A DNA stretch of 64,000 bases from Tagaea sp. (GCA_965279525.1 CBDIIB010000005.1:1407018-1471017); one strand, 5' to 3'. Counted from the stretch's first letter, positions 3,121-25,819 are shown. Translations and numbers: made by a program. The notes: a model not told the origin generated them from the sequence alone.

Positions 3121-5649
<2,529 letters not shown>

Positions 5650-5690
5650 TCGCCGGAACCCGCCGGACAGGATAGGATGCGACAAACGCG

Positions 5691-6986
5691 ATGAAGGCCC
5701 CCGCCGCGATGACTGATGCGACCGCCGATACGGAACTGAAGTCCGCGATCGAAGCGATGGGTGCTCGCGCCCGCGCCGCCGCCCGCCTGCTGGCCGTCGC
5801 ACCCGCCAAACGCAAGAGTGCCGCCCTGCGCGCCGCCGCCGACCGCTTGCGTGCCGCCACGCAGGACCTGCTCGACGCCAACGCCGCCGATGTCGCCTTC
5901 GCGGTCGATGCCGGCAACTCGGCTGCGATGGTCGACCGCACGCGCCTCGATCCCAAGCGCATCGACGCGATCGCGCGGGGGCTCGAGGATGTCGCGGCCC
6001 TTCCCGATCCGGTCGGCTCGATCCTGCAGGGCTGGACGCGTCCCAACGGCCTGCTCATCAGCCGCGTGGCCGTCCCCATCGGCGTGATCGGCATCATCTA
6101 TGAAGCGCGGCCCAACGTGACCGCCGACGCGGGCGCCTTGTGCATCAAGTCGGGCAACGCCGCGATCCTGCGCGGCGGGCAGGAGAGCTTCCTTTCTTCG
6201 CAGGTCATCGTCGCGGCGATCCGCGGTGCCCTTGCCGCACACGACCTGCCGGAGGACGCGATCCAGCTGATCCCCACGCGCGACCGTGCCGCCGTCGGGC
6301 ATCTGCTGGCCATGCACCAGCATGTCGACACGATCGTGCCGCGCGGCGGCCGGTCGCTGATCGAGCGCGTGATGAAGGAATCGCGCATCCCGGTGATCGC
6401 GCACCTGGAGGGGCTCTGCCATACCTATGTCCACGAATCGGCCGACATCGAGATGGCGCGAAAAGTGACGATGAACGCCAAGATGCGCCGCGTGTCGGTG
6501 TGCGGGGCGACCGAAACGCTGCTGATCGACCGGGCGGCGGCACCCACGCACCTGCCGGCGATCCTCGAAGATCTGTTTGCCGCTGGCTGCGAGATCCGCG
6601 GCGACGGCGACGTGCAGAAGCTCGACCGGCGCGTGGTGCCGGCCGTCGAGGCCGACTGGACGACCGAGTATCTCGACGCGATCCTCGCGGTGAAGATCGT
6701 CGACGGAATCGACGCGGCGATCGGGCACGTCAACACCTATGGCTCGCACCACACCGATGCGATCGTCGCGGGCGATCCGGCGGCGGCCGAGCAGTTCCTC
6801 GCGCGCGTCGATTCCGCGATCGTGCTGCACAACGCGTCGACCCAGTATGCCGATGGCGCCGAGTTCGGCTTCGGTGCCGAGATCGGCATTTCGACCGGTC
6901 GCCTGCCGCCGCGCGGGCCGGTGGGGGCCGAACAGCTCACGACCTACAAGTATGTCGTGCGCGGCGCTGGACAGACGCGGCCTTGA
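5691..6986 (+). CDS. proA: Gamma-glutamyl phosphate reductase
   Basis: The 431-aa protein belongs to the aldehyde dehydrogenase superfamily and sits in the conserved proB-proA order. An alternative start is possible at the second in-frame Met. Confidence 0.9.
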   Translation: MKAPAAMTDATADTELKSAIEAMGARARAAARLLAVAPAKRKSAALRAAADRLRAATQDLLDANAADVAFAVDAGNSAAMVDRTRLDPKRIDAIARGLEDVAALPDPVGSILQGWTRPNGLLISRVAVPIGVIGIIYEARPNVTADAGALCIKSGNAAILRGGQESFLSSQVIVAAIRGALAAHDLPEDAIQLIPTRDRAAVGHLLAMHQHVDTIVPRGGRSLIERVMKESRIPVIAHLEGLCHTYVHESADIEMARKVTMNAKMRRVSVCGATETLLIDRAAAPTHLPAILEDLFAAGCEIRGDGDVQKLDRRVVPAVEADWTTEYLDAILAVKIVDGIDAAIGHVNTYGSHHTDAIVAGDPAAAEQFLARVDSAIVLHNASTQYADGAEFGFGAEIGISTGRLPPRGPVGAEQLTTYKYVVRGAGQTRP

Positions 6987-7630
6987 TCGCACCACCGCTC
7001 CATCGTCTGGGCGTCGTACCCAAGCGCCGCATCGGCCTGTTCGGCGGTTCGTTCAATCCGGCCCATGAGGGGCACGCGCATATCGCGCGCGAGGCGCTGA
7101 AGCGGCTTGCCCTCGACGAAGTGTGGCTCCTCGTCAGCCCGCAGAATCCGCTGAAGGCCGAAGCGGGAATGGCGCCGCTGGACGCGCGCCTTGCAAGCAC
7201 GCTTGGCGTATGCGGGCGCGATCCGCGCCTGAAGGCCGTGGCGCTCGAAAGCTGGCTGGGGACGCGCTACACGGCCGATACGCTCGCCGCTTGCCGCCGG
7301 CGCTTCCGCCGCACGCAGTTCGTCTGGATCATGGGGGCCGACAATCTCGGCCAGATCCATCGCTGGGGAAGATGGTCATCGATCTTTCGCACGATGGTCA
7401 TTGCCGTGTTCGCACGACCAGCGTATTCTACCAAAGCATTGGCCGGAAAGGCGGCGCGGGCGTTTTCCACAGCCCGGGTCGGATCCCGACGGGTCCGACG
7501 CCTGGCAACACTCGAGCCGCCGGCCTGGACGTTCTTTCCCGTCCGGCTGCATCCGGCCTCTGCGACGCGCATCCGCGCCGTCCGCAAGGATTGGTTCGGC
7601 GGCGCGTCAGGTACCAGGTCCAACCAGTGA
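6983..7630 (+). CDS. nadD: Nicotinate-nucleotide adenylyltransferase
   Basis: RIGLFGGSFNPAHEGH is the (H/T)xGH nucleotidyltransferase motif. A non-ATG (TTG) start overlapping the proA stop is inferred, and the exact start is uncertain. Confidence 0.8.
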   Translation: MIAPPLHRLGVVPKRRIGLFGGSFNPAHEGHAHIAREALKRLALDEVWLLVSPQNPLKAEAGMAPLDARLASTLGVCGRDPRLKAVALESWLGTRYTADTLAACRRRFRRTQFVWIMGADNLGQIHRWGRWSSIFRTMVIAVFARPAYSTKALAGKAARAFSTARVGSRRVRRLATLEPPAWTFFPVRLHPASATRIRAVRKDWFGGASGTRSNQ

Positions 7631-8052
7631 GTTCGCACGGTTTACCGACTTTTTTCAGCCCCGGGAGACACGCGATCGCCACAGCAAAGCGCAAGACCGT
7701 ATCCGCGCCCAAAACGGTCCTCAAACTCGTCGAAAAAACGCTCGACGACGACAAGGCGACAGATCCCGTCGTCATCGACCTCGCCGGCAAGAGCTCGATG
7801 GCGGACTACATGATCGTCGCAAGCGGCCTTTCCAGCCGCCACATCCAGTCCATGGCCCAGCATGTCGTCGAGAAGCTGGAAGCCAAGGGCCTGAAGAGCA
7901 TCCGCATCGAGGGTGCCGACCAGGGCGACTGGGTGCTCATCGACGGCGGCGACATCGTCGTCCACCTGTTCCGACCCGAAGTGCGCGCCCTCTACGGCCT
8001 CGAAAAGATGTGGGCCGACAGCTGGGACGAACCGGCGGTCGCACAGGCCTGA
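7627..8052 (+). CDS. rsfS: Ribosome silencing factor RsfS (Iojap)
   Basis: The C-terminal 110 aa match the RsfS fold (DDDKATDPVVIDLAGKSSMADYMIVASG ... VLIDGGDIVVHLF). The GTG start overlapping the nadD stop as GTGA is inferred. Confidence 0.75.
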   Translation: MSSHGLPTFFSPGRHAIATAKRKTVSAPKTVLKLVEKTLDDDKATDPVVIDLAGKSSMADYMIVASGLSSRHIQSMAQHVVEKLEAKGLKSIRIEGADQGDWVLIDGGDIVVHLFRPEVRALYGLEKMWADSWDEPAVAQA

Positions 8053-8095
8053 GGAAAGGCGGCGCCCGCCGAAAAAGCGGGAGCCGGCGAAGCAG

Positions 8096-8569
8096 ATGCG
8101 GATTTTTGTGGTCGCGGCGGGACGCGCGCGCGGCACGCCCGAAGACGCGCTGTTCGCCGAGTATGCGAAGCGCCTGAAAACCGCCCCGGCCGGCATCGGC
8201 CCGCTCGAATGCCGGGAGATCGAAACGAAGTCGAAGACGCCGGCGGCCCGCAAGACCGAGGAAGCCGAGAAGCTGCGCGCCCAGATCCCCGACGGGGCGC
8301 TGATGGTCGTTCTCGATCCGCGCGGCAAGCCGCTTTCCACCGAGGAGTTCGCCCGACAGCTCGCACGATGGCGTGACGAGTCGACCGGCACGCTCGCTTT
8401 CGTCATCGGCGGCGCCGACGGGCTCGACGAATCGCTGGTCGGCGAAGCGCGCTTCCGGCTGTCGCTCGGATCGATGACCTGGCCCCACATGCTGGCCCGC
8501 GCGATGCTGGCCGAGCAGCTGTGGCGGGCCGCCTCGATCCTCGCCGGGCACCCCTACCACCGGGCTTAG
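8096..8569 (+). CDS. rlmH: 23S rRNA (pseudouridine1915-N3)-methyltransferase RlmH
   Basis: The SPOUT-class protein has motifs LAFVIGGADGL and MTWPHMLAR and sits in the conserved position after rsfS. Confidence 0.85.
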   Translation: MRIFVVAAGRARGTPEDALFAEYAKRLKTAPAGIGPLECREIETKSKTPAARKTEEAEKLRAQIPDGALMVVLDPRGKPLSTEEFARQLARWRDESTGTLAFVIGGADGLDESLVGEARFRLSLGSMTWPHMLARAMLAEQLWRAASILAGHPYHRA

Positions 8570-8664
8570 GCCGGCTGCACTTGATCCGGGGGGCGCCCTC
8601 CCGCCAATATCAACCAACATGCCCCGAGTCGGGCCATGCATTCCCGCGCGAAAGACCGGATTCA

Positions 8665-9639
8665 ATGGCGGCCAGACAAGCCAAAAAACCGCGCAGCACA
8701 GGGACGGATGCCGAGCGTCTCTATGCCGCCTTGCGGCGCATCCGGCGCGCCGAAGAGGAAGTCGCGCGCATCTACCCGTCCGACAAGATCAAGAGCCCGG
8801 TCCACCTGTCGATCGGCCAGGAGGGCGTTGCCGTCGGCGTGTGCGACCCGCTCGAGCCACGCGATGCGGTCTCCGGCACGTATCGTGGTCATGCCACGTA
8901 CCTAGCAAAAGGCGGTTCCCTGCCTGCGATGATGGCCGAGCTCTACGGCAAGGATACCGGGTGTGCGCGCGGCAAGGGCGGCTCGATGCACCTGATCGAC
9001 ATGAAGGCCAACGTGCTGGGAACATCCGCCGTCGTCGGCACGACCGTTCCGGTCGCGGTCGGCTATGCGATGGCGCAGAAGATGCGCGGCACGGGTGCCG
9101 TCGTCGCCTGCTTCATGGGCGACGGTGCCACCGAAGAAGGCTGCTTTCCCGAAAGCCTGAATTTCGCGGCACTCCATAAGCTCCCCGTCATCTTCGTTTG
9201 CGAGAATAACGGATTCGCGATCCACGAGCCGATCGCCAAGCGCCAGGCGACCGACCGGATCTGCGCGCGCGTCGCGACCTACGGCATTCCCACGAAGCGC
9301 TTCGCCGATTCCGACACGAAGGCGATCCGCGCCCATGTCGCCAAGGCGTTGCCGAAGATGCGCAAGGGCGGTGGGCCCATCTTCCTCGAATGCATGACCT
9401 GGCGCTGGCGCGAACATGTCGGGCCGGGCGAAGACTACGACGCCGGATTTCGCAGCCGCTCGATGCTGCTGAAATGGCAGAAGAAGGATCCCGTCGCCAT
9501 CGCGGCGCGGGCCCTGACGGCCGCCGTGCGCGCGAAGATCGATGCGGCGGTGGAGGCCGAGGTCGCGGCCGCCGTGAAGTTCGCCGAAGAGTCGCCGTTC
9601 CCCGCCGTCCAGGAGCTGGTCACCGATGTCTTCGCATAA
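8665..9639 (+). CDS. Thiamine-diphosphate-dependent dehydrogenase E1 component, alpha subunit (pyruvate/acetoin dehydrogenase E1alpha-like)
   Basis: The TPP-binding motif GDGATEEG sits in a typical E1alpha context (HLSIGQEGVAVGV ... YRGHATYLAKG ... CENNGFAI). There is no adjacent E2 or E3 gene. Confidence 0.85.
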   Translation: MAARQAKKPRSTGTDAERLYAALRRIRRAEEEVARIYPSDKIKSPVHLSIGQEGVAVGVCDPLEPRDAVSGTYRGHATYLAKGGSLPAMMAELYGKDTGCARGKGGSMHLIDMKANVLGTSAVVGTTVPVAVGYAMAQKMRGTGAVVACFMGDGATEEGCFPESLNFAALHKLPVIFVCENNGFAIHEPIAKRQATDRICARVATYGIPTKRFADSDTKAIRAHVAKALPKMRKGGGPIFLECMTWRWREHVGPGEDYDAGFRSRSMLLKWQKKDPVAIAARALTAAVRAKIDAAVEAEVAAAVKFAEESPFPAVQELVTDVFA

Positions 9640-10717
9640 GCTCGTCTGGCCGGGGCGCATGGAAGACGGGCGGCGCGTGCTGCGCTATGTCGACGCGCTG
9701 TCCGAGGCCGTGGCGCTGGAGATGGCGCGCGATCCGGGCGTGTTCGTGTTCGGCCTCGATGTCGACGATCACAAGGCGATCCAGGGTTCCACGCGCGGCC
9801 TGCTCGAGAAGTTCGGCGCCGGGCGCGTCTTCACCACGCCGCTTTCGGAAGACGCGATGACGGGTGTCGCCATCGGTGCCGCCATGGCGGGCATGCGGCC
9901 GATCCATGTGCATATCCGCATGGACTTCCTGATGCTGTGCATGAACCAGCTCGTCAACATCGCGGCCAAGGCCCGCTACATGTACGGCGGCCAGGTGAAG
10001 GTGCCGCTGGTCGTCCGCTCGATCATCGGCAAATCGTGGGGGCAGGGCGCCCAGCACAGCCAGGGCCTGCATTCGATGTTCATGCATGTGCCCGGGCTCA
10101 AGGTCTGCGCGCCTTCGAACGCGCACGATGCCAAGGGTGCGATGATCGCCGCGATCCGCGACGACAATCCGGTCGTGTTCGTCGAGCATCGACTTCTCTA
10201 TGCGACCGAGGCGTTCGTCGCCGAAGGCGCCTATGTCGTGCCGCCCGGCCGTTCGCGCGTGTGCCGCTGGGGCCGCGACGTGACCGTCGTGGGCATCTCC
10301 AACATGGTCGTCGAGGCGCTGCGCGCCGCCGAGCTCCTGAAGGAAGCCGGCGTGTCGGCGGAGGTAATCGACCCGATCTGGCTGTCGCCGCTCGACAGCG
10401 ACACGATCGTCGAAAGCGTGCGGCGCACGCGCAAGCTGCTGATCGTCGACAACGGCTGGAACATGTGCGGTGCGGGTGCGGAGATCGCCGCGCGCGTCGC
10501 CGAAGCCTGCGGGGACCTGCAAGTGACGATCCGCCGGATGGGCTTCTCGCCCACGCCGTGCCCGCCCTCGCCGATCCTCGAAGCGGCGTTCTATCCCAAC
10601 CCCGCCACGATCGCGGCCGAAGCGCATGCGCTGGCACGTCCCGGCGCGGCCGCGTGGGCGCCCGATCCATCGAGCGCGCAGCTCGCCTATCAGCTCCAGT
10701 TCAAGGGCCCGTTCTGA
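9626..10717 (+). CDS. TPP-dependent dehydrogenase E1 component, beta subunit (transketolase-like), with a roughly 35-aa C-terminal extension
   Basis: E1beta motifs are present (VFGLDVDD ... GSTRGLLEKFG ... TPLSEDAMTGVAIGAAMAGMRP). It overlaps the E1alpha stop by 14 nt. Confidence 0.85.
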   Translation: MSSHKLVWPGRMEDGRRVLRYVDALSEAVALEMARDPGVFVFGLDVDDHKAIQGSTRGLLEKFGAGRVFTTPLSEDAMTGVAIGAAMAGMRPIHVHIRMDFLMLCMNQLVNIAAKARYMYGGQVKVPLVVRSIIGKSWGQGAQHSQGLHSMFMHVPGLKVCAPSNAHDAKGAMIAAIRDDNPVVFVEHRLLYATEAFVAEGAYVVPPGRSRVCRWGRDVTVVGISNMVVEALRAAELLKEAGVSAEVIDPIWLSPLDSDTIVESVRRTRKLLIVDNGWNMCGAGAEIAARVAEACGDLQVTIRRMGFSPTPCPPSPILEAAFYPNPATIAAEAHALARPGAAAWAPDPSSAQLAYQLQFKGPF

Positions 10718-11892
10718 TGTTCTACGAACTCGCGACCCCCTCGTGGGGACAGGAGGAGATCGACGCCCTCCAGTCCGTCATCGCGTCCGGCCGCTTCACG
10801 ATGGGCGAAAGGGTCGCCGCGATGGAAGCGGCGTTTGCCGCCTATCACGGCAAGAAATATGGGGTGATGGTCAATTCCGGTTCGTCGGCGAACCTGATCT
10901 GCATCGCGGCACTCGCCTATCATTCGTCGCGGCCACTGGCGCGCGGCGACGAGGTGATCGTGCCGGCGATCTCGTGGAGCACGACCTATCATCCGCTTCA
11001 GCAGTACGGGCTCAAATGCCGGTTCGTCGACGTCGAGCTCGAGACGCTCAACATGGACGTCTCGAAGCTCGAGCAGGCGCTGACGCCCAAGACCAAGGCG
11101 CTGCTCGCCGTCTCGATCCTGGGCAACCCGGCCAAGCTCGACGAAATGCGCGCCTTCTGCGACCGGCACGGCCTGTGGTTCATGGAAGACAACTGCGAAT
11201 CCATGGATGCGGTCCTGCCCTCGGGCCGCAAGGCCGGCACGCTCGGCGATCTCAACACGTTCAGCTTCTTCTTCTCGCACCACATTTCGACGATGGAAGG
11301 CGGGATGGTGCTGACGGACGATCTCGAGCTCTACCATCTGCTCAAATGCATGCGCGCGCACGGCTGGACGCGCGACATCCCGCCGGACTCGCCGCTGTTC
11401 AAGCGCACCGCCAGCGACCATTTCGAGGCCTACCGCTTCCTGTTCCCGGGCTACAACGTCCGCCCGCTGGAGATGGAGGCGGCCGTCGGCATCGAGCAGC
11501 TCAAGAAGCTGCCGGCGATGACCGCGGCCCGGCGCAAGAACCTTGCGCTGTTCCAGAAGCATTTCTCGGGCGACGAGAATTTCATCATCCAGAAGGAGCA
11601 CGGGCAGAGCTCGTCCTTCTGCTTCACGCTGATCCTCAATCCGAAGAAGGATCTCGATCGCGAGAAGATCTTCGCGACGCTGAAACAGGCCGACATCGGC
11701 TTCCGGATCATCACCGGCGGCTGCTTCCTGCGCCACGACACGATCAAATACTACGATTACGACATCGTCGGAAACGGCGTGCCGAATGCCGAGCTGGCGC
11801 ACGACCGCGGCTTCTTCGTCGGCAACCATCCGCAGGACCTGAGCGTCCAGATCGAGACGCTGCGCAAGGTGCTGGACGGCGCAGTGCGCTGA
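10717..11892 (+). CDS. DegT/DnrJ/EryC1/StrS-family nucleotide-sugar 3-dehydrase (ColD/DdhC-like, PMP-dependent)
   Basis: The protein has the aminotransferase class V fold. In the SF(H)xxK..EGG motif the PLP-lysine position is occupied by His (FFFSHHISTMEGG), the hallmark of 4-keto-6-deoxy-sugar 3-dehydrases. At about 391 aa it lacks a C-terminal Fe-S Cys cluster, so it is ColD-like. Its ATG overlaps the E1beta stop. Confidence 0.75.
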   Translation: MFYELATPSWGQEEIDALQSVIASGRFTMGERVAAMEAAFAAYHGKKYGVMVNSGSSANLICIAALAYHSSRPLARGDEVIVPAISWSTTYHPLQQYGLKCRFVDVELETLNMDVSKLEQALTPKTKALLAVSILGNPAKLDEMRAFCDRHGLWFMEDNCESMDAVLPSGRKAGTLGDLNTFSFFFSHHISTMEGGMVLTDDLELYHLLKCMRAHGWTRDIPPDSPLFKRTASDHFEAYRFLFPGYNVRPLEMEAAVGIEQLKKLPAMTAARRKNLALFQKHFSGDENFIIQKEHGQSSSFCFTLILNPKKDLDREKIFATLKQADIGFRIITGGCFLRHDTIKYYDYDIVGNGVPNAELAHDRGFFVGNHPQDLSVQIETLRKVLDGAVR

Positions 11893-11893
11893 G

Positions 11894-12898
11894 CTAGCGG
11901 CTCTCCGTCAGGTCCGGCTCGTAGACGACGATGCGGCTGCCGTCCGCACCCGTCTTCACGTCGACCTCGATCAGGTCCTTGAGACGCTCGCGGATCGCGG
12001 CGCGCTTTTCCGGCGGTGCCACGAACGCGATGAATCCGCCGCCGCCGGCCCCCAGCAGCTTGCCGCCGACCGCCCCTGCCGCGATTCCCGCCTCGTAGAT
12101 CTGGTCGATCGTCGAGGTCGACACGCCTTCGGCAAGCTCCTTCTTCAGGCGCCAGCCGTCATGCATCAGCGCGCCGAGATCGAGCATCTGCCGGCCGGGG
12201 CTGGAGATGATCGCCTCGGCCTCGTCGACCATCTCGCGCATGCGATGCAGGTTCTTCTCCTTGGCACCCATGTTGGCGATCTGCTTGCTCGCCATCGCCA
12301 TCGCGTAGCGCGACAGGCCGGTGAAGAACAGCATCAGTGAGCCCTCGAGTTCCTCGCGCCGGGCCAGCGTCAGGATCAGCGGCTTGACCGAGAAGCTGCC
12401 ATCGATGCGGAAATCGATCCGGTTGAGACCGCCATAGGCCGCCCAGACCTGGTCCTGGCTGCCGACCGGTTCGCGGATGACGTGCTGCTCGATGCGGATC
12501 GCCTCTTCGGCGAGTTTGTGCTTCGAGATCATCTGGCCGCGGAGCGCATAGAGCGCGTTGAGCAGGCCGACCGTGAAAGCGGACGACGAGCCCAGACCCG
12601 AACGCGCCGGAAGGTCGCCGTCATGATGGATCTCCAGACCGCGCCGCTCCTTCTGGTCGAGCAGGACGGCCCGCACGGCCGGGTGCTCGATCTCGAGCAG
12701 GTCGTTGACCAGCTCGATGCGCGACCACACCACCCGATAGCGGTGCTCGAAGAACGGCGGAAGACGGCGCAGCGAGATGTTGCAGTACTTGTCGATCGCC
12801 GTGCCGATCACGGCGCCGCCATGCTGCAGGTACCATTTCGGGTAATCGGTGCCGCCGCCGAAGAAGGAGAGGCGGTACGGGGTGCGCGAGATGATCAC
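11894..12898 (-). CDS. GHMP-family sugar kinase (HddA / D-glycero-D-manno-heptose-7-phosphate-kinase-like)
   Basis: The GHMP motif DLPARSGLGSSSAFTVGLLNAL (PxGSGLGSSAA) is present. The N-terminus MIISRTPYRLSFFGGGTDYP is typical of the HddA/fucokinase clade, and there is a C-terminal GHMP_C domain. Confidence 0.7.
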   Translation of the reverse strand: MIISRTPYRLSFFGGGTDYPKWYLQHGGAVIGTAIDKYCNISLRRLPPFFEHRYRVVWSRIELVNDLLEIEHPAVRAVLLDQKERRGLEIHHDGDLPARSGLGSSSAFTVGLLNALYALRGQMISKHKLAEEAIRIEQHVIREPVGSQDQVWAAYGGLNRIDFRIDGSFSVKPLILTLARREELEGSLMLFFTGLSRYAMAMASKQIANMGAKEKNLHRMREMVDEAEAIISSPGRQMLDLGALMHDGWRLKKELAEGVSTSTIDQIYEAGIAAGAVGGKLLGAGGGGFIAFVAPPEKRAAIRERLKDLIEVDVKTGADGSRIVVYEPDLTESR

Positions 12899-13015
12899 GG
12901 GCGGCGGACTCCATCGCGGGGCGAATCGAGACGATCAATTGCAAGGATAAGAAATATCACCTATATCAGTCGCTTACCAGTTCAGTTGCGGGTTCTGCAG
13001 AGGGAGTGACGGCAG

Positions 13016-13960
13016 ATGGCGGGCAAGACGCGCGTTCTGATTACCGGCGGTGCAGGCTATCTGGGCTCCACGCTGACACCGGCCCTGCTCGATGCCGGCT
13101 ACGCCGTGACGGTGCTCGACAGTTTCATGTTCAGGCAGATGCCGCTGGCCCATGTCTGCGCGCATCCGGATTTCGACGTCGCGCGCGGCGATGCCCGCGA
13201 CGAATCGGTCCTGAAGCCGCTTGTCGCGAAGGCCGACGCCGTCATCCCGCTTGCGGCACTGGTCGGCGCACCGCTGTGCAACGCCGACAAGCTGGGCGCC
13301 GAGTCGATCAATCGCGATGCGGTCAAGACGCTGCTGAAGCTGATGTCCCCGTCCCAGCGCGTGCTGATGCCGGTGACGAATTCCGGCTACGGCGTGGGCG
13401 AGAAGGGCAAGGAATGCACGGAAGACAGTCCGCTGCGGCCGATCTCGCTCTACGGGCGCACCAAGGTCGAGGCGGAGGAAGCGGTCCTCGCGCGCGGCAA
13501 CGCGATCTCGTTCCGGCTCGCGACCGTCTTCGGGATGAGTCCGCGCATGCGCATCGACCTGCTGGTCAACGATTTCGTGCACCGCGCCGTGACCGACCGT
13601 GCCGTCGTCCTGTTCGAGCCGCATTTCAAGCGCAACTATGTCCACGTGCGCGACGTGGCGAACGCCTTCATGCACGGCCTCTCGAAGTTCGATACGATGA
13701 AGGACCGTCCCTACAATGTCGGTCTTTCGGACGCGAACATCTCGAAATGGGAGCTGTGCGAACGGATCGCCAGGCACGTGCCCGGCTTCGTGTTCATCGA
13801 AGCGCCGATCGGCGAAGACCCGGACAAGCGCGACTATATCGTCTCGAATGCACGCATCGAGGCGACGGGCTTCAAGCCGAAATTCTCGCTCGATGACGGC
13901 ATCGTCGAGCTGATGAAGGGCTTCCGGATGATCCGCAACTCGGTCTACGGGAACGTATGA
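13016..13960 (+). CDS. NAD(P)-dependent epimerase/dehydratase-fold nucleotide-sugar reductase or epimerase (extended SDR)
   Basis: It has a Rossmann motif VLITGGAGYLGS and a YGRTK catalytic YxxxK. It lacks the TDE motif of 4,6-dehydratases, so a 4-keto reductase or epimerase is more likely. Confidence 0.7.
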   Translation: MAGKTRVLITGGAGYLGSTLTPALLDAGYAVTVLDSFMFRQMPLAHVCAHPDFDVARGDARDESVLKPLVAKADAVIPLAALVGAPLCNADKLGAESINRDAVKTLLKLMSPSQRVLMPVTNSGYGVGEKGKECTEDSPLRPISLYGRTKVEAEEAVLARGNAISFRLATVFGMSPRMRIDLLVNDFVHRAVTDRAVVLFEPHFKRNYVHVRDVANAFMHGLSKFDTMKDRPYNVGLSDANISKWELCERIARHVPGFVFIEAPIGEDPDKRDYIVSNARIEATGFKPKFSLDDGIVELMKGFRMIRNSVYGNV

Positions 13961-14490
13961 ACGTCGTCGATCTCGATCTGCCGGGCGTGAAGCTGGTCGA
14001 GCCGAAGGTCTTCGGCGACCCGCGCGGCCAGTTCCTCGAGACGTGGAATGCCGGGCGCTACGCGGCCGCCGGGATTCCGGGGCCGTTCGTGCAGGACAAC
14101 CTGTCGCGCTCGCGCCGGAACACGGTTCGCGGGCTGCACTGGCAGGACCCCAATCCGCAGGGCAAGCTCGTGTCGGTCGTCGCCGGTGCGGTCTGGGATG
14201 TGGTGGTCGACATCCGCCGCGACAGCGCGGCGTACGGGAAATGGTACGGCGTCGAGCTTTCGGCCGAGAACCGCCGGCAGCTCTGGGTGCCCGCCGGCCT
14301 TGCGCACGGCTTTGCCGTGCTCAGCGATTTCGCCGATTTCACGTACAAGGTCACCGGCCCCTACAGCCCGAAGGACGAACACGTGCTGCGCTGGAACGAT
14401 CCGGAAATCGGCATCGACTGGAAGATCGATCCGGCGGCTGCGATACTGTCCGAGCGCGACGCGACCGCATCGGGGCTTGCAGGCATATGA
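13957..14490 (+). CDS. rfbC: dTDP-4-dehydrorhamnose 3,5-epimerase
   Basis: RmlC cupin motifs are present (FGDPRGQFLETW ... RGLHWQ ... KLVSVVAGAVWDVVVDIR ... LWVPAGLAHGF). Confidence 0.9.
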   Translation: MNVVDLDLPGVKLVEPKVFGDPRGQFLETWNAGRYAAAGIPGPFVQDNLSRSRRNTVRGLHWQDPNPQGKLVSVVAGAVWDVVVDIRRDSAAYGKWYGVELSAENRRQLWVPAGLAHGFAVLSDFADFTYKVTGPYSPKDEHVLRWNDPEIGIDWKIDPAAAILSERDATASGLAGI

Positions 14491-15368
14491 ACGAGAGATT
14501 GGGCATCTTGCTGGCGGGCGGGGCAGGCACGCGCCTGCATCCTTCGACCCTCGCCACGTCGAAGCAGCTGCTGCCCGTCTACGACAAGCCAATGGTCTAC
14601 TACCCGCTGTCGACGCTGATGCTCGCGGGTATCCGGAAAGTGCTGCTGATTTCCACGCCGGTCGACATTCCAGGCTTCAAGCGCCTGTTCGGCGACGGGA
14701 AGGCGTGGGGCATCGATATTTCGTACGCCGAACAGCCCAAGCCCGAGGGAATCGCGCAGGCCTACCTGATCGCGGAGACCTATCTTGCCGGCCGTCCGTC
14801 GGCGCTGATACTCGGTGACAACATCTTCTATGGCGAAGGCCTGTCGCGCCGACTGCAGGCCGTCGCCGGCCGCGGCGACCCGGGGGCAAGCGTGTTCGCC
14901 TATACGGTTTCCGATCCCGAACGCTATGGCGTGATCGAGCTGGACGGTTCCGGAAAGCCGACGGGACTGGTCGAAAAGCCGGCCAGCCCGCGCTCGAATC
15001 TCGCCGTCACCGGACTCTATTTCTACGACGGCGACGCCTCGCGCAGGACGCGCGGTCTGCGGCCGAGTGCGCGCGGCGAACTCGAGATCACCGATCTGAA
15101 CCGGTCCTATCTGGACGACGGCCTCCTGACTGTCGAGACGCTGCGCCGCGGCAATGCCTGGCTCGATACCGGCACGCAGGACTCGCTCCTCGACGCGTCG
15201 AACTTCATCGCTGCGGTCGAACGCCGGCAGGGCCTCAAGATCGGCTGCCCGGAAGAGATCGCCTGGCGGCAGGGCTGGATCGACGATGCGGCCCTTGCGC
15301 GGCTCGCCGAGCCGCTGCGCAAGAGCGGCTATGGCGAGTATCTGCTGCGGCTGATCGGCAGGCGCTGA
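14487..15368 (+). CDS. rfbA: Glucose-1-phosphate thymidylyltransferase
   Basis: GILLAGGAGTRLHPSTLATSKQLLPVYDKPMVYYPLSTLMLAGI is a canonical RmlA N-terminus. Its ATG overlaps the rfbC stop as ATGA. Confidence 0.9.
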   Translation: MNERLGILLAGGAGTRLHPSTLATSKQLLPVYDKPMVYYPLSTLMLAGIRKVLLISTPVDIPGFKRLFGDGKAWGIDISYAEQPKPEGIAQAYLIAETYLAGRPSALILGDNIFYGEGLSRRLQAVAGRGDPGASVFAYTVSDPERYGVIELDGSGKPTGLVEKPASPRSNLAVTGLYFYDGDASRRTRGLRPSARGELEITDLNRSYLDDGLLTVETLRRGNAWLDTGTQDSLLDASNFIAAVERRQGLKIGCPEEIAWRQGWIDDAALARLAEPLRKSGYGEYLLRLIGRR

Positions 15369-15371
15369 GCC

Positions 15372-16427
15372 ATGCGGTCCATCCTCGTCACCGGCGGCTG
15401 CGGTTTCATCGGATCGGCATTCCTGCGCCACGTCGTGGGGCAGGGGCTTGCCCGGGCGGTCAATGTCGACAAGCTGACCTACGCCGCCAATCCCGATGCG
15501 GTCGCCGCACTCGCGGGCGGTGACTATGCTTTCGTGCAGGCCGATATCGGCGACAGGGACGCGATGCGCGCGGCATTCGCGAAGTACCGCCCGGAGGCCG
15601 TCGTGAATTTCGCGGCCGAGACGCATGTCGACCGCTCCATCGACGGACCGCTCGCCTTCGTGGAGACCAACGTCGCGGCGACCGCCCGCCTCCTCGTCGA
15701 GGCGCACGCCTACTGGCGGAGCCTGGATGGAACGGCGCGCGACGCGTTCCGCTTCCTGCACGTGTCGACCGATGAAGTCTTCGGGTCGCTCGACGCCGAC
15801 GATCCGCCCTTCACCGAGACGTCCGCCTACGCGCCGAATTCGCCCTATGCCGCGACGAAGGCTGCGTCCGACCATCTCGTGCGCGCGTGGAACCGGACCT
15901 ACGGCCTGCCCGTCCTCGTCACCAACTGCTCGAACAATTACGGGCCCTGGCAGTTCCCCGAGAAACTCATCCCGCTGATGATCGCCAAGGCGCGCGCTGG
16001 CGAGAAGCTGCCGGTCTACGGCGCCGGGACCAACGTGCGCGACTGGCTGCATGTCGAAGACCACGCGGCCGGACTATGGCTCGCCCTGACGCGCGGCAGG
16101 CCCGGCGAGACCTACGGCTTCGGCGGCGGGAGCGAGGTCGCAAACATCGATGTCGTCCACGCGATCTGCGATACGCTCGATTCGCGTCTGGGAATTCTGG
16201 CTGGCGGCCCGCGCCGGCGTCACGTCGAGTACGTGTCGGACCGACCGGGCCATGATTTCCGGTATGCGATCGATGCTGGAAAGGCGGCGGCAGAACTCGG
16301 CTGGCGTCCGGGCCGCGACTTCGCCACCGGTCTCGCCGCGACCGTCGACTGGTATCTTGCCAACGCCGCATGGGTCGATTCGATCCGCAGCCGCCTCTAC
16401 GCGCTCGAGCGCCTCGGAACGGGATGA
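15372..16427 (+). CDS. rfbB: dTDP-glucose 4,6-dehydratase
   Basis: The RmlB signature is present: ILVTGGCGFIGSAF, HVSTDEVFG and YAATKAASDHLVRAW. Confidence 0.9.
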   Translation: MRSILVTGGCGFIGSAFLRHVVGQGLARAVNVDKLTYAANPDAVAALAGGDYAFVQADIGDRDAMRAAFAKYRPEAVVNFAAETHVDRSIDGPLAFVETNVAATARLLVEAHAYWRSLDGTARDAFRFLHVSTDEVFGSLDADDPPFTETSAYAPNSPYAATKAASDHLVRAWNRTYGLPVLVTNCSNNYGPWQFPEKLIPLMIAKARAGEKLPVYGAGTNVRDWLHVEDHAAGLWLALTRGRPGETYGFGGGSEVANIDVVHAICDTLDSRLGILAGGPRRRHVEYVSDRPGHDFRYAIDAGKAAAELGWRPGRDFATGLAATVDWYLANAAWVDSIRSRLYALERLGTG

Positions 16428-17323
16428 TGCCGGTCGTCCTCGTGTTCGGCGCCGGCGGCCAGGTCGGCCGGGCGCTCGTCGAAGCAGGCCCGGCGCACGG
16501 CTGGACCGTGCGCGGCCTTGCACGCGACGCGGTCGACATCTGCGATGCCGCTTCGGTGAAGGCGGCCGTGGCCGCGACTGCGCCGGATGCCATCGTCAAC
16601 GCCGCCGCGTATACCGCCGTCGACAAGGCGGAAGCGGACGCCGAACAGGCGCAGCGCGTGAATGGCGAGGCACCCGGCACGATCGCGACGGCCGCCGCCG
16701 CCGCCGGCGTGCCCTTCGTGCATCTGTCGACCGACTACGTGTTCGACGGCACGTCGCGCGTTCCCTACAAGGAAGCCGATCCGGTCGGGCCGCCTTGTGT
16801 TTACGGGCGCACGAAGCGCGCCGGCGAGATCGCGGCCTACAAGGCCGGCGGGCGCAGCGTCATCTTGCGCACGTCGTGGGTCTTCGCGCCGTGGGGCGTC
16901 AATTTCGTGCGCACGATGCTGCACCATGCCGCCCTCAAGCCCGAACTGCGCGTCGTCGACGATCAGCGTGGCGGACCCACGCCGGCAACCGAGATCGCCG
17001 CGACAATCCTGAAGATCCTGCCGCGCCTGGCCGGCGAGGACGGCGCCAGCCGCACCGGGCTGTTCCACTATCAGGGTCGTCCGCCGGTCACCTGGGCGGC
17101 ATTCGCAGACGCGATCCTCGACGAAGGGGCGCTGCTCGGCCATCCGCGCCCGCCGGTCGTACGCATCGCGACATCGGACTGGCCGACGGCGGCAGCGCGT
17201 CCGGCCAACAGCGTGCTCGATTGCGCGCGCATCGCGCGCGATTACGACATCACTCCACCCGACTGGCGGCCGGCCCTGTCGCGGGCGGTGCGCGAGATCC
17301 TGTCGGAAGCGAAGGCCGGCTGA
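16424..17323 (+). CDS. rfbD: dTDP-4-dehydrorhamnose reductase
   Basis: The RmlD-like motifs VLVFGAGGQVGRAL and YGRTKRAGE are present. Its ATG overlaps the rfbB stop. Confidence 0.85.
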   Translation: MMPVVLVFGAGGQVGRALVEAGPAHGWTVRGLARDAVDICDAASVKAAVAATAPDAIVNAAAYTAVDKAEADAEQAQRVNGEAPGTIATAAAAAGVPFVHLSTDYVFDGTSRVPYKEADPVGPPCVYGRTKRAGEIAAYKAGGRSVILRTSWVFAPWGVNFVRTMLHHAALKPELRVVDDQRGGPTPATEIAATILKILPRLAGEDGASRTGLFHYQGRPPVTWAAFADAILDEGALLGHPRPPVVRIATSDWPTAAARPANSVLDCARIARDYDITPPDWRPALSRAVREILSEAKAG

Positions 17324-17327
17324 ACGC

Positions 17328-19235: not shown

Positions 19236-19255
19236 CGTTTCCCGGTGCCCCAGCG

Positions 19256-20536: not shown

Positions 20537-20693
20537 GTCATGTTCCCGGGTGCGACTATGCCCTTCGTAGCGGCCTTGGCAGGCTCGCGCAAGCGGCGGA
20601 AAGAAAGGGTGAATCTGCGCCGGTGATTTCTTGGCAACCGTGGCGTTGAAGCCGTACTGTCGCACCGGTCGCGACGTTCGGGCGGAGTGAAAT

Positions 20694-21698
20694 ATGCGCA
20701 ACCGCAAGCTGGGCCGGACCGGCCTCGTCGTGTCCGAGATCGGCTACGGCACCTGGGGCATTGGCGGCTTTGTGGCGGGCGCTTCGTATGGCGAAACCGA
20801 CGATGCGGTGTCGCGCGCGGCCCTGCGCCGGGCGCTCGAGCGCGGCGTCACTTTCTTCGATACGGCGGACGCCTATGGCGACGGACGCGCGGAGACGTTG
20901 CTGGGCGAATGCTTCGGCGCCGGATCGGGCGTTGCCGCCAGCGCGGTGGTCGTCGCCACCAAGGCCGGCCATCCGCGCTTCGGGGCCCCGCAGGACTTCA
21001 CACCCGCCAACCTTGCCCGCTCGGTCGAGGGTTCGCTGCGCCGGCTGCGTCGCGACCGGGTCGAACTGCTGCAACTTCACAGCCCGCCGCTCGACCTGCT
21101 GCGCGCGCGGCCCGAGATCCTCGGCGCCCTCGACGAGATGAAGCGGGCGGGCAAGATCGGCGCCTGGGGCCTGTCGACCAAGACACCGGCCGAAGCGGCC
21201 GTGGCGATCCGCGAGTTTGCGGCGGCCTGCGTGCAGGCCAACTTCAATCTCGCCGACCAGCGTGCCCTCGAAGACGGCCTGCTTGAACTGGCGCTGTCGA
21301 CGGATACGGGCCTGATTGCCCGCACGCCGCTCGCCTTCGGCTTCCTCTCCGGCAGGCTTTCGGCGGATGCCGAATTCCCGGAAGGCGATCACCGGCGCAA
21401 CTGGTCGAAGGAGCGTATCGCGCAGTGGGCCAGCGCCAGCCGCACGCTTGCCGGCGACATCGCCGCGCGCGACGGCCAGAGTCTTGCGCAGGTCGCCCTG
21501 CGCTTCTGCCTCTCGCATCCCGGCGTGTCGACGACGATCCCCGGCATGCTGACGCCTGCCGAGGTCGACGAAAATGCAGCCGTGTCGGCGCTCGCGCCGA
21601 TGCCGGCGGCTGATATCGCGAAGATCCGGGCGCTCTATGCCGGCAGCGTGTTCGCGGGTGTCCCGGTCGTCACGCCGAAGACGCCGGTGCGGCCATGA
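20694..21698 (+). CDS. Aldo/keto reductase
   Basis: The AKR N-terminus LGRTGLVVSEIGYGTWGIGG and DTADAYGDGRAE motifs are present. Confidence 0.8.
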   Translation: MRNRKLGRTGLVVSEIGYGTWGIGGFVAGASYGETDDAVSRAALRRALERGVTFFDTADAYGDGRAETLLGECFGAGSGVAASAVVVATKAGHPRFGAPQDFTPANLARSVEGSLRRLRRDRVELLQLHSPPLDLLRARPEILGALDEMKRAGKIGAWGLSTKTPAEAAVAIREFAAACVQANFNLADQRALEDGLLELALSTDTGLIARTPLAFGFLSGRLSADAEFPEGDHRRNWSKERIAQWASASRTLAGDIAARDGQSLAQVALRFCLSHPGVSTTIPGMLTPAEVDENAAVSALAPMPAADIAKIRALYAGSVFAGVPVVTPKTPVRP

Positions 21699-22606
21699 AC
21701 CCGTTCGGCCCTGTCGAGCGGATCGAGAGCCGCACCCATGCGCGCCTGCCGGACGTGTTCCGCGCGAAGCGGCGCACCGCTTGGGCGGATGCCAATCGCG
21801 CCGGCGCCCACGTCGATTCGTTCCTTGAAGGCCCGTGTTTCGATGCCGCCGGCAATCTCTTCGTCGTCGACGTCCCGTTCGGCCGCATCTTCCGCATCGC
21901 CCCCGCCGGCACGTGGAGCCTTGTGGCGGAGTATGAAGGCTGGCCCAACGGCATGAAGGTGCGTGCCGACGGCAGGCTCGTCGTCGCGGACTATCGCAAC
22001 GGAATCGTCGAGATCGATCCGGCGACCGGTGCGATGAAGCCGCTGTTGCGCGACTGGCGCTCGGAGAGCTTCAAGGGCGTCAACGACCTGAGCTTTGCCG
22101 CGAACGGCGATCTCTATTTCACCGATCAGGGCCAGACCGGCCTGCAGGATCCGACCGGGCGCGTCTTCCGGCAGGGCGTCGATGGCGCCATCGACCTGCT
22201 GGTCGATACGGTGCCAAGCCCCAACGGCCTCGCGCTCGATCTTGTCGAAAAGGCGCTCTATGTCGCCGTGACGCGCGCCAATGCCATCTGGCGCCTGCCG
22301 CTGTTCGAGCGCGGAAGGTCGTCGAAAGTCGGCACCTTCATCCAGCTTTCCGGCGGCGGCGGTCCGGACGGGATCGCGCTGGACGCGCAAGGCGGGCTCG
22401 TCGTCGCCCATCTTGGCACCGGGGTGTGGCGCTTCGACCGTCACGGCTTCGCCACGCATTTCGTCGGGCCGCTCGGCATGACGGTCACGAACGTCGCGTT
22501 CGGCGGACCGGATGGCCGCGATCTCTACATGACCGAAAGCGAAACGGGCGAGATAAGTGTCGCGCGGATGCCGTTCAGCGGCAGAGCGGTACCACGGCCG
22601 ACTTGA
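21695..22606 (+). CDS. SMP-30/gluconolactonase/LRE-family sugar lactonase
   Basis: The protein shows the six-bladed beta-propeller lactonase pattern (EGPCFDAAGNLFVVD ... NDLSFAANGDLYFTD ... PNGLALD ... PDGIALDAQGGLVVA). It overlaps the AKR stop as ATGA. Confidence 0.8.
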   Translation: MNPFGPVERIESRTHARLPDVFRAKRRTAWADANRAGAHVDSFLEGPCFDAAGNLFVVDVPFGRIFRIAPAGTWSLVAEYEGWPNGMKVRADGRLVVADYRNGIVEIDPATGAMKPLLRDWRSESFKGVNDLSFAANGDLYFTDQGQTGLQDPTGRVFRQGVDGAIDLLVDTVPSPNGLALDLVEKALYVAVTRANAIWRLPLFERGRSSKVGTFIQLSGGGGPDGIALDAQGGLVVAHLGTGVWRFDRHGFATHFVGPLGMTVTNVAFGGPDGRDLYMTESETGEISVARMPFSGRAVPRPT

Positions 22607-25024: not shown

Positions 25025-25819
25025 ATGCGCGCGAGCGACATGGAAGCCGTCATCCTCGCAGGGGGCATGGGAACGCGCCTTCGCGAGGAAACCGAGCTGC
25101 GGCCAAAGCCGATGGTCGAGATCGGCGGCGTGCCGATCCTCGTGCACATCATGCGCATCTACCGCCATTATGGCGTTCGCCGGTTCATCGTCTGCCTTGG
25201 TTACAAAGGCGACGTCATCCGCGACTATTTCATCAACTATCGGCTCCACAACGCCGACCTCGAGGTCGATCTTTCGACCAATGCCGTGCGCGTGCTGGGC
25301 GACGTGGCGCCACTCGACTGGACGGTCACGCTGGTCGAGACCGGTGCCGAATCGCAGACCGGCAGCCGGATCCGGCGGGCCTTGAAGCATGTGCGCGGCC
25401 AGACCTTCTTCGCCACCTACGGCGACGGGGTCGCCAATGTCGATGTCGCCGGACTTCTCGACACGCACGTGAAGTCGGGCAAACTCGGCACGGTCACGGC
25501 CGTGCACCCGCCCTCGCGCTTCGGCGAGATCGACATCGCCGGGACCGACGTGCGCACGTTCCGTGAAAAGCCGCAGATCGACGAAGGCTGGATCAACGGT
25601 GGCTTCCTGGTCCTCGACAAGCGCGCGGTCGACGGCGTGGCGCTCGACGACACGAAGAACAGCCTGGAGATCGACGTGCTGCCGAAGCTGGCGCACGCAG
25701 GCCATCTCGCCGTCCACCGGCACGGCGGATTCTGGCAATGCATGGACACCTATCGCGACATGACACTGCTCAACGAGATGTGGGCGGCCGGCAAGGCGCC
25801 CTGGAAGGTCTGGCAATGA
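25025..25819 (+). CDS. rfbF: Glucose-1-phosphate cytidylyltransferase
   Basis: AVILAGGMGTRLREETELRPKPMVEIGGVPILVHIMRIY is a canonical RfbF/DdhA N-terminus, and the protein length matches. An alternative start is possible at Met 25040. Confidence 0.9.
   Translation: MRASDMEAVILAGGMGTRLREETELRPKPMVEIGGVPILVHIMRIYRHYGVRRFIVCLGYKGDVIRDYFINYRLHNADLEVDLSTNAVRVLGDVAPLDWTVTLVETGAESQTGSRIRRALKHVRGQTFFATYGDGVANVDVAGLLDTHVKSGKLGTVTAVHPPSRFGEIDIAGTDVRTFREKPQIDEGWINGGFLVLDKRAVDGVALDDTKNSLEIDVLPKLAHAGHLAVHRHGGFWQCMDTYRDMTLLNEMWAAGKAPWKVWQ

Follow-up and report, generated by a model that had tools for sequence, protein, structure and literature searches.

A two-component thiamine diphosphate enzyme coupled to a ColD-type dehydratase: a candidate two-carbon branching module on a GDP-heptose scaffold in Tagaea and other Gram-negative bacteria

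Background

What is a pair of dehydrogenase-type genes doing beside a sugar dehydratase gene? In a stretch of 64,000 nucleotides from Tagaea sp. (GCA_965279525.1, CBDIIB010000005.1:1407018-1471017; here called the window, with positions counted from its first letter), the genes for two subunits of a thiamine diphosphate (ThDP)-dependent enzyme, E1alpha and E1beta, are directly followed by a gene for a DegT-family protein. A sequence-only reading of this arrangement proposed a two-carbon (C2) branching module like AviB1/AviB2, acting on a 3,6-dideoxyhexose linked to cytidine diphosphate (CDP) or another nucleoside diphosphate (NDP). The analysis described here retains the proposed role as the best-fitting function of a pair that lacks the E2 (dihydrolipoamide acyltransferase) and E3 (dihydrolipoamide dehydrogenase) partners and sits in a keto-sugar pathway, but not the CDP-dideoxyhexose acceptor. 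Judging from gene context and analogy with known branching enzymes, E1alpha/beta probably takes an acetyl unit from pyruvate and attaches it as a branch to C4 of guanosine diphosphate (GDP)-3-deoxy-4-keto-heptose, which would give a so far undescribed nine-carbon surface sugar.

E1-type enzymes of the alphaKADH2 class (AviB1/B2, Pau11/12, the aldgamycin enzyme and KbDH-alpha/beta) transfer a C2 branch from pyruvate onto keto sugars (PMC12247030, PMC4753412). KbDH-alpha/beta was tested in vitro and was limited to pyruvate, all known products of the class carry a C2 branch, and these enzymes have been described only from actinomycete antibiotic and secondary-metabolite pathways (PMC12247030). 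The known C4-branched sugars of lipopolysaccharide (LPS) all start from 3-deoxy-4-keto acceptors (PMC9306805).

Results

Direct translation bore out the overlaps claimed for the three co-directional core genes, which are 14 nt between E1alpha and E1beta and 1 nt between E1beta and the DegT-family gene, where the sequence TGATG shares the A of the E1beta stop codon. E1alpha contains the motif GDGATEEG...CENN and matches the Pfam domain E1_dh (PF00676, 2.5e-60), E1beta consists of Transket_pyr (PF02779) and Transketolase_C (PF02780), and the third protein matches DegT_DnrJ_EryC1. A long open reading frame (ORF) in another frame, at 10626-11897, was discarded as a spurious ORF of high-GC DNA.

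When GTDB species, each represented by one genome, were scanned for E1beta, up to 367 related stretches came up, and 80 of these were analysed as loci; tblastn with the window proteins and an independent clustering of all ORFs gave the same core of genes. In the 41 loci flanked by 6 kb or more on either side, E1alpha was always present (41/41), accompanied by the DegT-family gene, shown below to be of ColD type, in 39, by a Cj1427-like short-chain dehydrogenase/reductase (SDR) in 38, by an HddA-like kinase in 33 and by an HddC/ManC-like nucleotidyltransferase in 21. Co-localisation with the dehydratase gene is thus conserved, with a gap of at most 50 nt to E1beta in about 58 of 72 loci and an overlap of exactly 1 nt in 18 loci, and the 14-nt overlap of E1alpha and E1beta was also found in loci L086, L088, L089 and L094. 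The recurrence of these overlaps argues that the core arrangement is not due to chance.

The nearest genomes were Tagaea sp. metagenome-assembled genomes (MAGs) of the Rhodospirillales, with E1beta 97–98% identical. The core set of E1alpha, E1beta, ColD-like and Cj1427-like genes, usually with the kinase gene, is present in Rhodospirillales, Hyphomicrobiales, Acidobacteria, Myxococcota and Desulfovibrionia, and was found in Azospirillum, Magnetospirillum, Niveispirillum, Elstera, Desertibaculum and a Hyphomicrobiales isolate as well as in Acidobacteria, Bryobacterales and Myxococcales MAGs. Cultured strains with the cassette are Azospirillum lipoferum 4B (plasmid AZO_p6), A. thermophilum, Magnetospirillum sp. 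LM-5, Niveispirillum lacus and Solidesulfovibrio magneticus RS-1. The statement that the module would be unusual for a Gram-negative polysaccharide locus hence agrees with the literature but not with the genomes. In the window, the GC content at third codon positions of the cassette genes (0.82–0.89) and their codon-position GC in general match those of the housekeeping neighbours, which rules out recent horizontal acquisition. A scan of 8300-13200 for sigma-70 promoters gave no site, such a scan being uninformative in a high-GC genome.

The sequence-only reading held that no E2 or E3 gene follows the pair, and this was confirmed over a wider range: three E2 sequences and one E3 sequence, used as tblastn queries (E<=1e-5), had no match in the window or across 1.56 Mb of related cassette loci, and the Pfam tables of eight cassette loci were likewise free of E2 and E3. 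In all three control loci (L095-L097, with AcoAB, PdhAB and a Brevibacillus E1), the E2 gene lies directly downstream. Both subunits score below the NCBIfam cutoffs for pyruvate dehydrogenase (PDH), with 290 bits against 394 for E1alpha (TIGR03182) and 298 against 321 for E1beta (NF006667), and the score for NF008854 was 290 against a cutoff of 454. A neighbour-joining tree of concatenated E1alpha and E1beta (549 columns, 100 bootstraps) separated the cassette pair from the E2-linked E1s with 100% bootstrap support. On one side of this split are the cassette clade, the version of S. magneticus, a cassette of A. oryzae with an HldE-type kinase and two E1s of Streptomyces biosynthetic clusters, and on the other side are the E2-linked AcoAB, PdhAB and Brevibacillus E1. 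The references in the tree were few and did not include AviB1/B2, Pau11/12 or KbDH, so that the tree excludes an ordinary PDH better than it proves an AviB-type enzyme. Together, the lack of E2/E3, the sub-cutoff scores and the tree uphold the claim that the pair does not belong to a pyruvate or acetoin dehydrogenase complex.

The ThDP-binding site is intact, with the GDG...ENN motif, the alpha-His, the beta-Glu/His and the beta 'AQHSQ' sequence all conserved, and GDG(A)(T/S)EEG...ENN and alpha-His251 are invariant across 92 relatives. Because the ThDP motif, alpha-His251 and AQHSQ are retained, the predicted E1alpha/beta enzyme should be catalytically competent. A comparison of catalytic histidines with human PDH E1 was rejected as a discriminator, since alpha-His and beta-His are conserved in either case and carboligase and dehydrogenase E1s are not told apart. 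PDH, acetoin dehydrogenase and branched-chain 2-oxo-acid dehydrogenase (BCKDH) E1s share the fold, the ThDP motif and the catalytic His with the cassette pair at 35–46% identity (human PDH E1alpha at approximately 35%), and among solved structures PDH E1s come nearest to both subunits. The differences are that the cassette clade has an invariant GDGA(T/S)EEG where human PDH E1alpha has GDGAANQG, and that the pair lacks E2/E3, falls below the equivalog cutoffs, forms a separate clade and has a C-terminal extension on E1beta.

This extension (residues ~326-363) carries the pattern W.PD....LAYQxQF(K/R)GPF, conserved in 90 relatives, and ends exactly where the ColD-type gene begins. The PDH/BCKDH E1beta chains of the PDB (324–342 aa) align only up to E1beta residue ~313-332. 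With S. magneticus and A. oryzae E1beta, the tblastn alignments end at residues 323-329. In the structure of a G. stearothermophilus E1 with the peripheral subunit-binding domain (PSBD), the free C-terminus of E1beta reportedly helps to dock E2, and an extension at this end could keep E2 from binding; the tail could alternatively serve in docking. Two E2-less Streptomyces relatives (S. albogriseolus pSALBX2 and S. griseofuscus pSGRIFU1) were considered as references for sugar branching and set aside, as these plasmid genes lie in non-sugar clusters with transporters, an AMP-ligase and parts of polyketide synthases and nonribosomal peptide synthetases.

The third core protein had been called a ColD/DdhC-like 3-dehydrase, and only the first half of this description was retained. 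It matches the ColD structures 2GMS, 3GR9, 3B8X and 2R0T over its full length at E ~1e-115 (8e-116 for 2GMS/3GR9), and its SHHISTMEGG aligns with SHHIATMEGG of ColD around His188, a position marked by the H188N and H188K mutant entries. This catalytic His, which replaces the Schiff-base Lys, is invariant in 83 ColD-like orthologues. The match to the iron-sulphur (Fe-S)-dependent CDP-sugar dehydrase E1/RfbH is far weaker (1e-46; 258 bits against a cutoff of 423 for the NCBIfam RfbH model), the protein has 391 aa compared with 437 aa for E1, and the Fe-S C-terminal region of E1/RfbH is absent, leaving no support for a DdhC/E1 type. From these alignments the protein is assigned as a ColD orthologue of the GDP-sugar 3-dehydratase type. 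No Gmd was found in the window or the cassettes, the partner of the ColD-like enzyme being Cj1427-like instead. The cassettes therefore differ from GDP-colitose synthesis, where ColD works with Gmd and ColC, and an Fcl/ColC-like gene is present in some loci only. ColD-family C3-dehydratases are known to accept GDP-4-keto-heptoses (PMC10440746).

The gene at 13016, previously taken for an SDR-fold reductase, instead encodes a Cj1427-type C4-dehydrogenase of GDP-heptose, approximately 60% identical to Cj1427, as matched to 6VO6 and 6VO8 (Table 1); its function is taken from that established for this type of enzyme (PMC10680097). We identified 6VO6 as C. jejuni Cj1427 through a published primer, which after reverse-complementing encodes RAFKMMKV, the sequence present at the C-terminus of the chain. 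The intervening kinase has HddA as best NCBIfam match (2e-34), and its best PDB matches are the heptose-phosphate kinases WcbL 4USK, 3K85 and 4N3O (1e-35 to 1e-29). As the dehydratase is of ColD type, the SDR of Cj1427 type and the kinase HddA-like, the assigned scaffold is GDP-heptose and not a CDP- or NDP-linked 3,6-dideoxyhexose as first suggested, which is consistent with the HddC-like, GmhB, GmhA and NUDIX genes of other loci. Of the supply genes for GDP-heptose, the window has the HddA-like kinase only, with HddC-like, GmhB-like and SIS genes contained in other cassettes. The predicted acceptor is GDP-D-glycero-3-deoxy-4-keto-heptose, in which the C6 hydroxyl would be retained. This compound has been made in vitro with Cj1427 and a ColD-family C3-dehydratase by Raushel's group, who considered it non-natural (PMC10680097).

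Sister cassettes on two Azospirillum plasmids, A. argentinense Az39 p5 (L098) and Azospirillum sp. B510 pAB510f (L099), combine a Cj1427-like gene and a kinase gene with a transketolase split into N- and C-terminal halves, lack E1alpha/beta and ColD, and are surrounded by insertion sequence elements. That of Az39 also has a B12 radical-SAM enzyme (52% identical to that of E1alpha/beta cassettes), a cobalamin-dependent protein and a methyltransferase, and that of B510 an aldo/keto reductase (AKR), an SDR, a NUDIX gene and an O-methyltransferase. The two cassette types share the Cj1427-like, HddA-like kinase, B12 radical-SAM, AKR and NUDIX genes and a ThDP-dependent C2-transfer enzyme; in the split type the transketolase halves replace E1alpha/beta, ColD is missing and a hydroxyacetyl branch is expected in place of acetyl. 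For miharamycin and amipurimycin, it has been proposed that transketolases attach hydroxyacetyl branches to keto sugars (PMC12247030). Two different C–C-forming ThDP enzymes would thus have been recruited to the same maker of 4-keto-heptose, which also favours a ThDP-dependent C–C step on this intermediate. S. fredii has the Cj1427-like/HddA-like/HddC-like set with ordinary DegT aminotransferases and without ColD or any ThDP enzyme, and for this reason E1alpha/beta and ColD look like a plug-in sub-module on a GDP-heptose base. A third variant was seen on a plasmid of A. oryzae KACC 14407 (L093, 3780-16135), with E1alpha/beta 48% identical, an HldE-like PfkB kinase and an SIS gene, which would point to ADP-heptose, and with three SDRs, two DegT genes, radical-SAM and NUDIX genes followed by GT4 genes.

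Several accessory genes recur in the cassette loci. A B12-binding radical-SAM enzyme is encoded in approximately 30 loci, or 28 by the ORF clustering, with HpnJ and BchE as best, albeit weak, NCBIfam matches, and an Fcl-like epimerase/reductase (NF047922, 460 bits) in approximately 19; no Fcl-like gene was found in the window or in any Tagaea-type cassette. Other members are NUDIX hydrolases, SIS/GmhA-like proteins, GmhB-like HAD phosphatases, sometimes fused to the nucleotidyltransferase, and glycosyltransferases of the GT2, NodZ-like and tetratricopeptide repeat (TPR)-GT41 types, the last in multiple copies. The most complete single operon is a distant version on the S. magneticus RS-1 plasmid pDMC1 (L090, ~4000-20900; E1beta 49% identical), in the order GT2, GT2, radical SAM, NUDIX, kinase, E1alpha, E1beta, Fcl-like, ColD-like, Cj1427-like, nucleotidyltransferase, PMT-like glycosyltransferase ('protein O-glycosylation'), L-2-hydroxyglutarate oxidase and SIS protein. 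The oxidase gives a hint of the Cj1427 reaction, a ping-pong recycling of bound NADH in which 2-oxoglutarate is converted to L-2-hydroxyglutarate as by-product, and the SIS protein fits a sedoheptulose-7-phosphate isomerase. As a general cassette member the oxidase was rejected, since it was found only in S. magneticus, apart from a 26%-identical DAO protein in L003-L005.

Paralogous TPR-GT41 glycosyltransferases (OGT/FlmG-like) flank the cassette in L087 (1-9929, 18457-21008), L089 (4226-7815) and L048, which suggests a protein such as flagellin, and not LPS, as the possible carrier of the sugar. Metagenomic locus L088 (74-3280, 8442-9941, 14051-17254) has four B12-binding radical-SAM genes around E1alpha/beta, together with an acyltransferase_3 gene and a ketoreductase (KR)-type SDR, a gene content that hints at extensive tailoring of a branched sugar. 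E1beta sequences 70–88% identical to that of the window were present under surprising taxon labels, on a 2.4-kb contig of an Opitutia MAG (L019) and in Asaia bogorensis MAGs (L015, L047), which are likely to reflect mis-binning.

In the window, the housekeeping block obg-proB-proA-nadD-rsfS-rlmH lies upstream of E1alpha, the GHMP kinase gene is convergent with the core genes, and the Cj1427-like gene is translationally coupled to rmlC (Table 1). The rml genes adjoin the cassette only in the Tagaea-like group, where they share an operon with the Cj1427-like gene, and are not part of the module elsewhere. A second sugar pathway was observed at 17328-23702, with a PglF/WbpM-like 4,6-dehydratase (658 aa) and a UDP-sugar dehydrogenase, both on the minus strand, and a Lys-type DegT aminotransferase. 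Over its full length, the AKR encoded at 20694 shares 48% identity (E=3e-102) with its counterpart in the B510 split-transketolase cassette, and copies approximately 60% identical are found in the Tagaea-type islands L001, L018 and L020-22. In paulomycin synthesis the AKR Pau7 reduces the C4' acetyl branch (PMC4753412), and on the strength of this precedent and of the B510 identity we tentatively consider the AKR a sixth cassette member here. An SMP-30/gluconolactonase-like gene is translationally coupled to it, its start at 21695 overlapping the AKR stop at 21698.

The annotation of rfbF at 25025 proved correct (Table 1). The gene stands alone, 13 kb from the module, its product is 25–31% identical to the HddC/ManC-like nucleotidyltransferases of cassettes, and no rfbG (CDP-glucose 4,6-dehydratase), rfbH or E3 gene was found in the 64-kb window. 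On account of this distance, the low identity and the missing partners, rfbF was judged unlikely to supply the nucleotidyltransferase of the module, to which it is probably unrelated. Next come GNAT-like, HMGL-like, CoA-transferase III and TRAP-transporter genes, in a catabolic and transport region. Searches of the 64-kb window also gave no HddC-like, radical-SAM, NodZ-like, flippase or polymerase genes. Further downstream, a 454-aa ORF without Pfam match (46104-47468, minus strand) lies between the genes for an inositol monophosphatase and a 3-hydroxyacyl-CoA dehydrogenase, in a stretch of ~2 kb with a GC content of 0.47–0.49 compared with ~0.67 elsewhere, and looks like a small foreign insertion.

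Table 1. Positions of the cassette genes and of neighbouring sugar genes in the window
Feature	Position	Strand	Remarks
E1alpha-like ThDP-binding subunit	8665..9639	+	324 aa, ATG to TAA; proposed carboligase subunit of an E2-less alpha/beta enzyme
E1beta-like subunit	9626..10717	+	363 aa, ATG to TGA; clade-specific C-terminal tail of ~35 aa
ColD-type pyridoxal phosphate/pyridoxamine phosphate (PLP/PMP)-dependent GDP-4-keto-sugar 3-dehydratase (DegT family)	10717..11892	+	391 aa, starts with ATG
HddA-like GHMP sugar kinase	11894..12898	-	334 aa; probably D-glycero-D-manno-heptose-7-phosphate 1-kinase
Cj1427-type GDP-heptose C4-dehydrogenase, extended SDR	13016..13960	+	PDB 6VO6/6VO8, E=5e-114, residues 6-313
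rmlC-rmlA-rmlB-rmlD (dTDP-L-rhamnose)	13957..17323	+	TIGR01221, TIGR01207, TIGR01181 and TIGR01214 above cutoffs; context only
Aldo/keto reductase (AKR)	20694..21698	+	334 aa, PF00248; tentative branch-ketone reductase, weak assignment
rfbF, glucose-1-phosphate cytidylyltransferase	25025..25819	+	TIGR02623, 333 bits against a cutoff of 300

Discussion

The pathway that we propose would start with the HddA-like kinase and an HddC-like guanylyltransferase, which together with GmhA and GmhB may supply GDP-heptose, all but the kinase being encoded elsewhere in the genome. The Cj1427-like dehydrogenase would then oxidise C4, the oxidant being 2-oxoglutarate in Campylobacter, and the ColD-like enzyme would remove the 3-OH at the expense of glutamate, releasing 2-oxoglutarate and ammonia and leaving GDP-D-glycero-3-deoxy-4-keto-heptose. 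The oxidation and the 3-deoxygenation rest on strong homology and on the published biochemistry of homologues. The branching step is suggested by gene context and by analogy: an E1alpha/beta heterotetramer could decarboxylate pyruvate on ThDP, and attack of the resulting hydroxyethyl carbanion on the isolated C4 ketone would lead to a tertiary alcohol with a 4-C-acetyl group. The acetyl group might subsequently be reduced to 1-hydroxyethyl, by the AKR here or by the Fcl-like SDR in other genomes, and glycosyltransferases encoded elsewhere would attach the sugar to a surface glycan. We infer the order of the substrates, the choice of pyruvate as donor, the attachment at C4 and the structure of the end product.

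The pair would represent a novel form of the sugar-branching enzymes known as alphaKADH2 (AviB/KbDH) from actinomycetes, to which we liken it by architecture and gene context. The systems for avilamycin (AviB1/AviB2), paulomycin (Pau11/Pau12), aldgamycin and kibdelomycin (KbDH) likewise use a two-subunit E1alpha/E1beta enzyme without E2/E3, embedded in a nucleotide-sugar pathway that makes a deoxy-keto sugar, as the adjacent Cj1427-like and ColD-like enzymes would in the cassette, and the proposed chemistry runs in the same way from pyruvate via hydroxyethyl-ThDP and a ring ketone to an acetyl-branched tertiary alcohol. Those enzymes make antibiotics on dTDP-linked hexose or pentose, whereas the cassette would serve Gram-negative surface or protein glycans on GDP-heptose, and it differs further in its fixed ColD-type and Cj1427-type partners and its clade-specific E1beta tail. 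An in-silico survey by Krug et al. (Angew 2024) is said to cover approximately 120 alphaKADH2 clusters, and some of the cassette loci may be among them.

In logic, the proposed pathway resembles that of yersiniose A (YerE/YerF) and of ErwE-like enzymes, with a 3-deoxygenated 4-keto sugar, ThDP-dependent acyl addition at C4 and reduction of the branch, for a Gram-negative surface polysaccharide. YerE differs in being a single-chain enzyme of the acetolactate synthase type (TPP_enzyme_N/M/C) instead of an E1alpha/beta pair, and it acts on CDP-3,6-dideoxy-4-keto-glucose, which DdhA-D supply by means of an Fe-S E1/E3 system. An acetolactate synthase-like gene near L003-L005 is no conserved companion of the cassette. 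The capsular GDP-heptose pathways of C. jejuni (HddA/HddC, Cj1427, the HS:5 C3-dehydratase, Cj1428/Cj1430) have a homologous kinase, C4-dehydrogenase and C3-dehydratase, but contain no ThDP enzyme, do not naturally combine Cj1427 with the C3-dehydratase and yield unbranched heptoses.

The alternative that survives best leaves pathway and scaffold unchanged and gives E1alpha/beta another ThDP reaction, with a different 2-oxo-acid donor (2-oxoglutarate from the ColD reaction, hydroxypyruvate or a longer keto acid) or a different carbonyl as acceptor, or, in one variant, with a C–C bond that is later rearranged by the radical-SAM enzyme. The sequence does not reveal the donor, YerE-like enzymes vary widely in their donors (PMC9306805), 2-oxoglutarate is both made and used locally, and the transketolase of the sister cassettes would itself transfer hydroxyacetyl and not acetyl. 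We nevertheless regard this alternative as rather unlikely, given that KbDH is limited to pyruvate and the products of its class are all C2-branched (PMC12247030), and that the nearest solved relatives of both subunits act on pyruvate as parts of PDH.

Only a small chance is given to the possibility that the cassette makes a GDP-3-deoxy-heptose, an analogue of colitose, through the Cj1427-like and ColD-like enzymes and a 4-reductase, with E1alpha/beta as an auxiliary for the supply or disposal of 2-oxo acids. The Fcl-like gene of some cassettes, which in S. magneticus lies between E1beta and ColD, would fit this, and enzymes of exactly these kinds were used by Raushel's group to make GDP-3-deoxy-heptoses. 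Against it, E1alpha/beta is kept where an Fcl-like gene is missing, in the window and in every Tagaea-type cassette, an E2-less E1 has no acceptor for oxidative decarboxylation, and no other cassette member is as well conserved as E1alpha/beta, which is also coupled to ColD at the level of translation. The S. fredii heptose set, with neither ColD nor ThDP enzyme, likewise implies that E1alpha/beta is an add-on tied to ColD, for which heptose synthesis as such has no general requirement.

A CDP- or other NDP-linked 3,6-dideoxy-4-keto-hexose, made via rfbF and branched to a yersiniose-like sugar as in the sequence-only reading, is very improbable, even though rfbF is a genuine glucose-1-phosphate cytidylyltransferase and has an orthologue ~8 kb from the cassette in L018. 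It is the only gene of such a pathway, with neither a CDP-glucose 4,6-dehydratase nor an Fe-S E1/E3 pair, the dehydratase is of the ColD type, which acts on GDP-sugars, and the Cj1427-type SDR is neither a 4,6-dehydratase nor a reductase; the HddC/ManC-like nucleotidyltransferases of other cassettes, sometimes fused to GmhB, and their NUDIX and SIS genes fit GDP-heptose. Least credible of all is a catabolic E1 of the usual kind, from a pyruvate or acetoin dehydrogenase, that adjoins sugar genes by accident and borrows E2/E3 from elsewhere, for which the intact catalytic residues (ThDP motif, alpha-His251, beta 'AQHSQ') and the PDH E1 names of the best NCBIfam matches could be cited, against sub-cutoff scores of both subunits, the fully supported split from E2-linked E1s, synteny with ColD and the Cj1427-like gene across phyla in loci free of E2/E3, and a conserved E1beta extension that PDH E1beta lacks.

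Some observations weigh against acetyl branching of GDP-3-deoxy-4-keto-heptose. The closest E2-less Streptomyces E1 relatives that we inspected sit in non-sugar clusters. The HddA-like kinase is divergent, scoring 120 bits against the HddA cutoff of 600, and within the 64-kb window there is no nucleotidyltransferase of the cassette type, no GmhA or GmhB and no glycosyltransferase of any kind. An Fcl-like 4-reductase would find no C4 ketone after branching, and its target must then be the branch carbonyl or a side flux. In the literature we found no C4-branched heptose from Tagaea, Azospirillum or Magnetospirillum, and no branched sugars for the latter two.

If acetyl is indeed added to C4 of GDP-3-deoxy-4-keto-heptose, the product would have the exact skeleton of caryose (4,8-cyclo-3,9-dideoxy-nonose), which is 3-deoxy, with a quaternary C4-OH and a C8 carrying OH and methyl. 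Caryose is known from Burkholderia caryophylli, and a 2022 review stated its biosynthetic origin as unknown (PMC9092360). The cassette radical-SAM enzyme is distantly related to HpnJ, which has been genetically implicated in the formation of a sugar-derived cyclopentane ring (PMC9092360), and to BchE, named an oxidative cyclase in NCBIfam; such an HpnJ/BchE-like B12 enzyme could close the C7–C8 bond to give the cyclopentane ring. That the cassette family is the biosynthetic origin of C4-branched and carbocyclic higher sugars such as caryose is nonetheless a long shot. With no radical-SAM gene, the window would lead to an open-chain 3-deoxy-4-C-acetyl or 4-C-(1-hydroxyethyl) heptose, which is itself an undescribed nine-carbon sugar.

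Conclusions

C-branched sugars of Gram-negative surface glycans have so far been ascribed only to YerE-like single-chain enzymes. If the proposed role of E1alpha/beta is true, the cassette would represent a second ThDP route to cell-surface glycans, and GDP-3-deoxy-4-keto-heptose, only made artificially by Raushel's group, would be a natural intermediate. It would also provide new ketone-accepting ThDP carboligases for tertiary alcohols and a concrete set of genes by which the still unsolved synthesis of carbocyclic sugars of the caryose type could be approached, and would predict a new class of nine-carbon sugars in Azospirillum, Magnetospirillum, Tagaea and many uncultured bacteria, plant-associated ones included.

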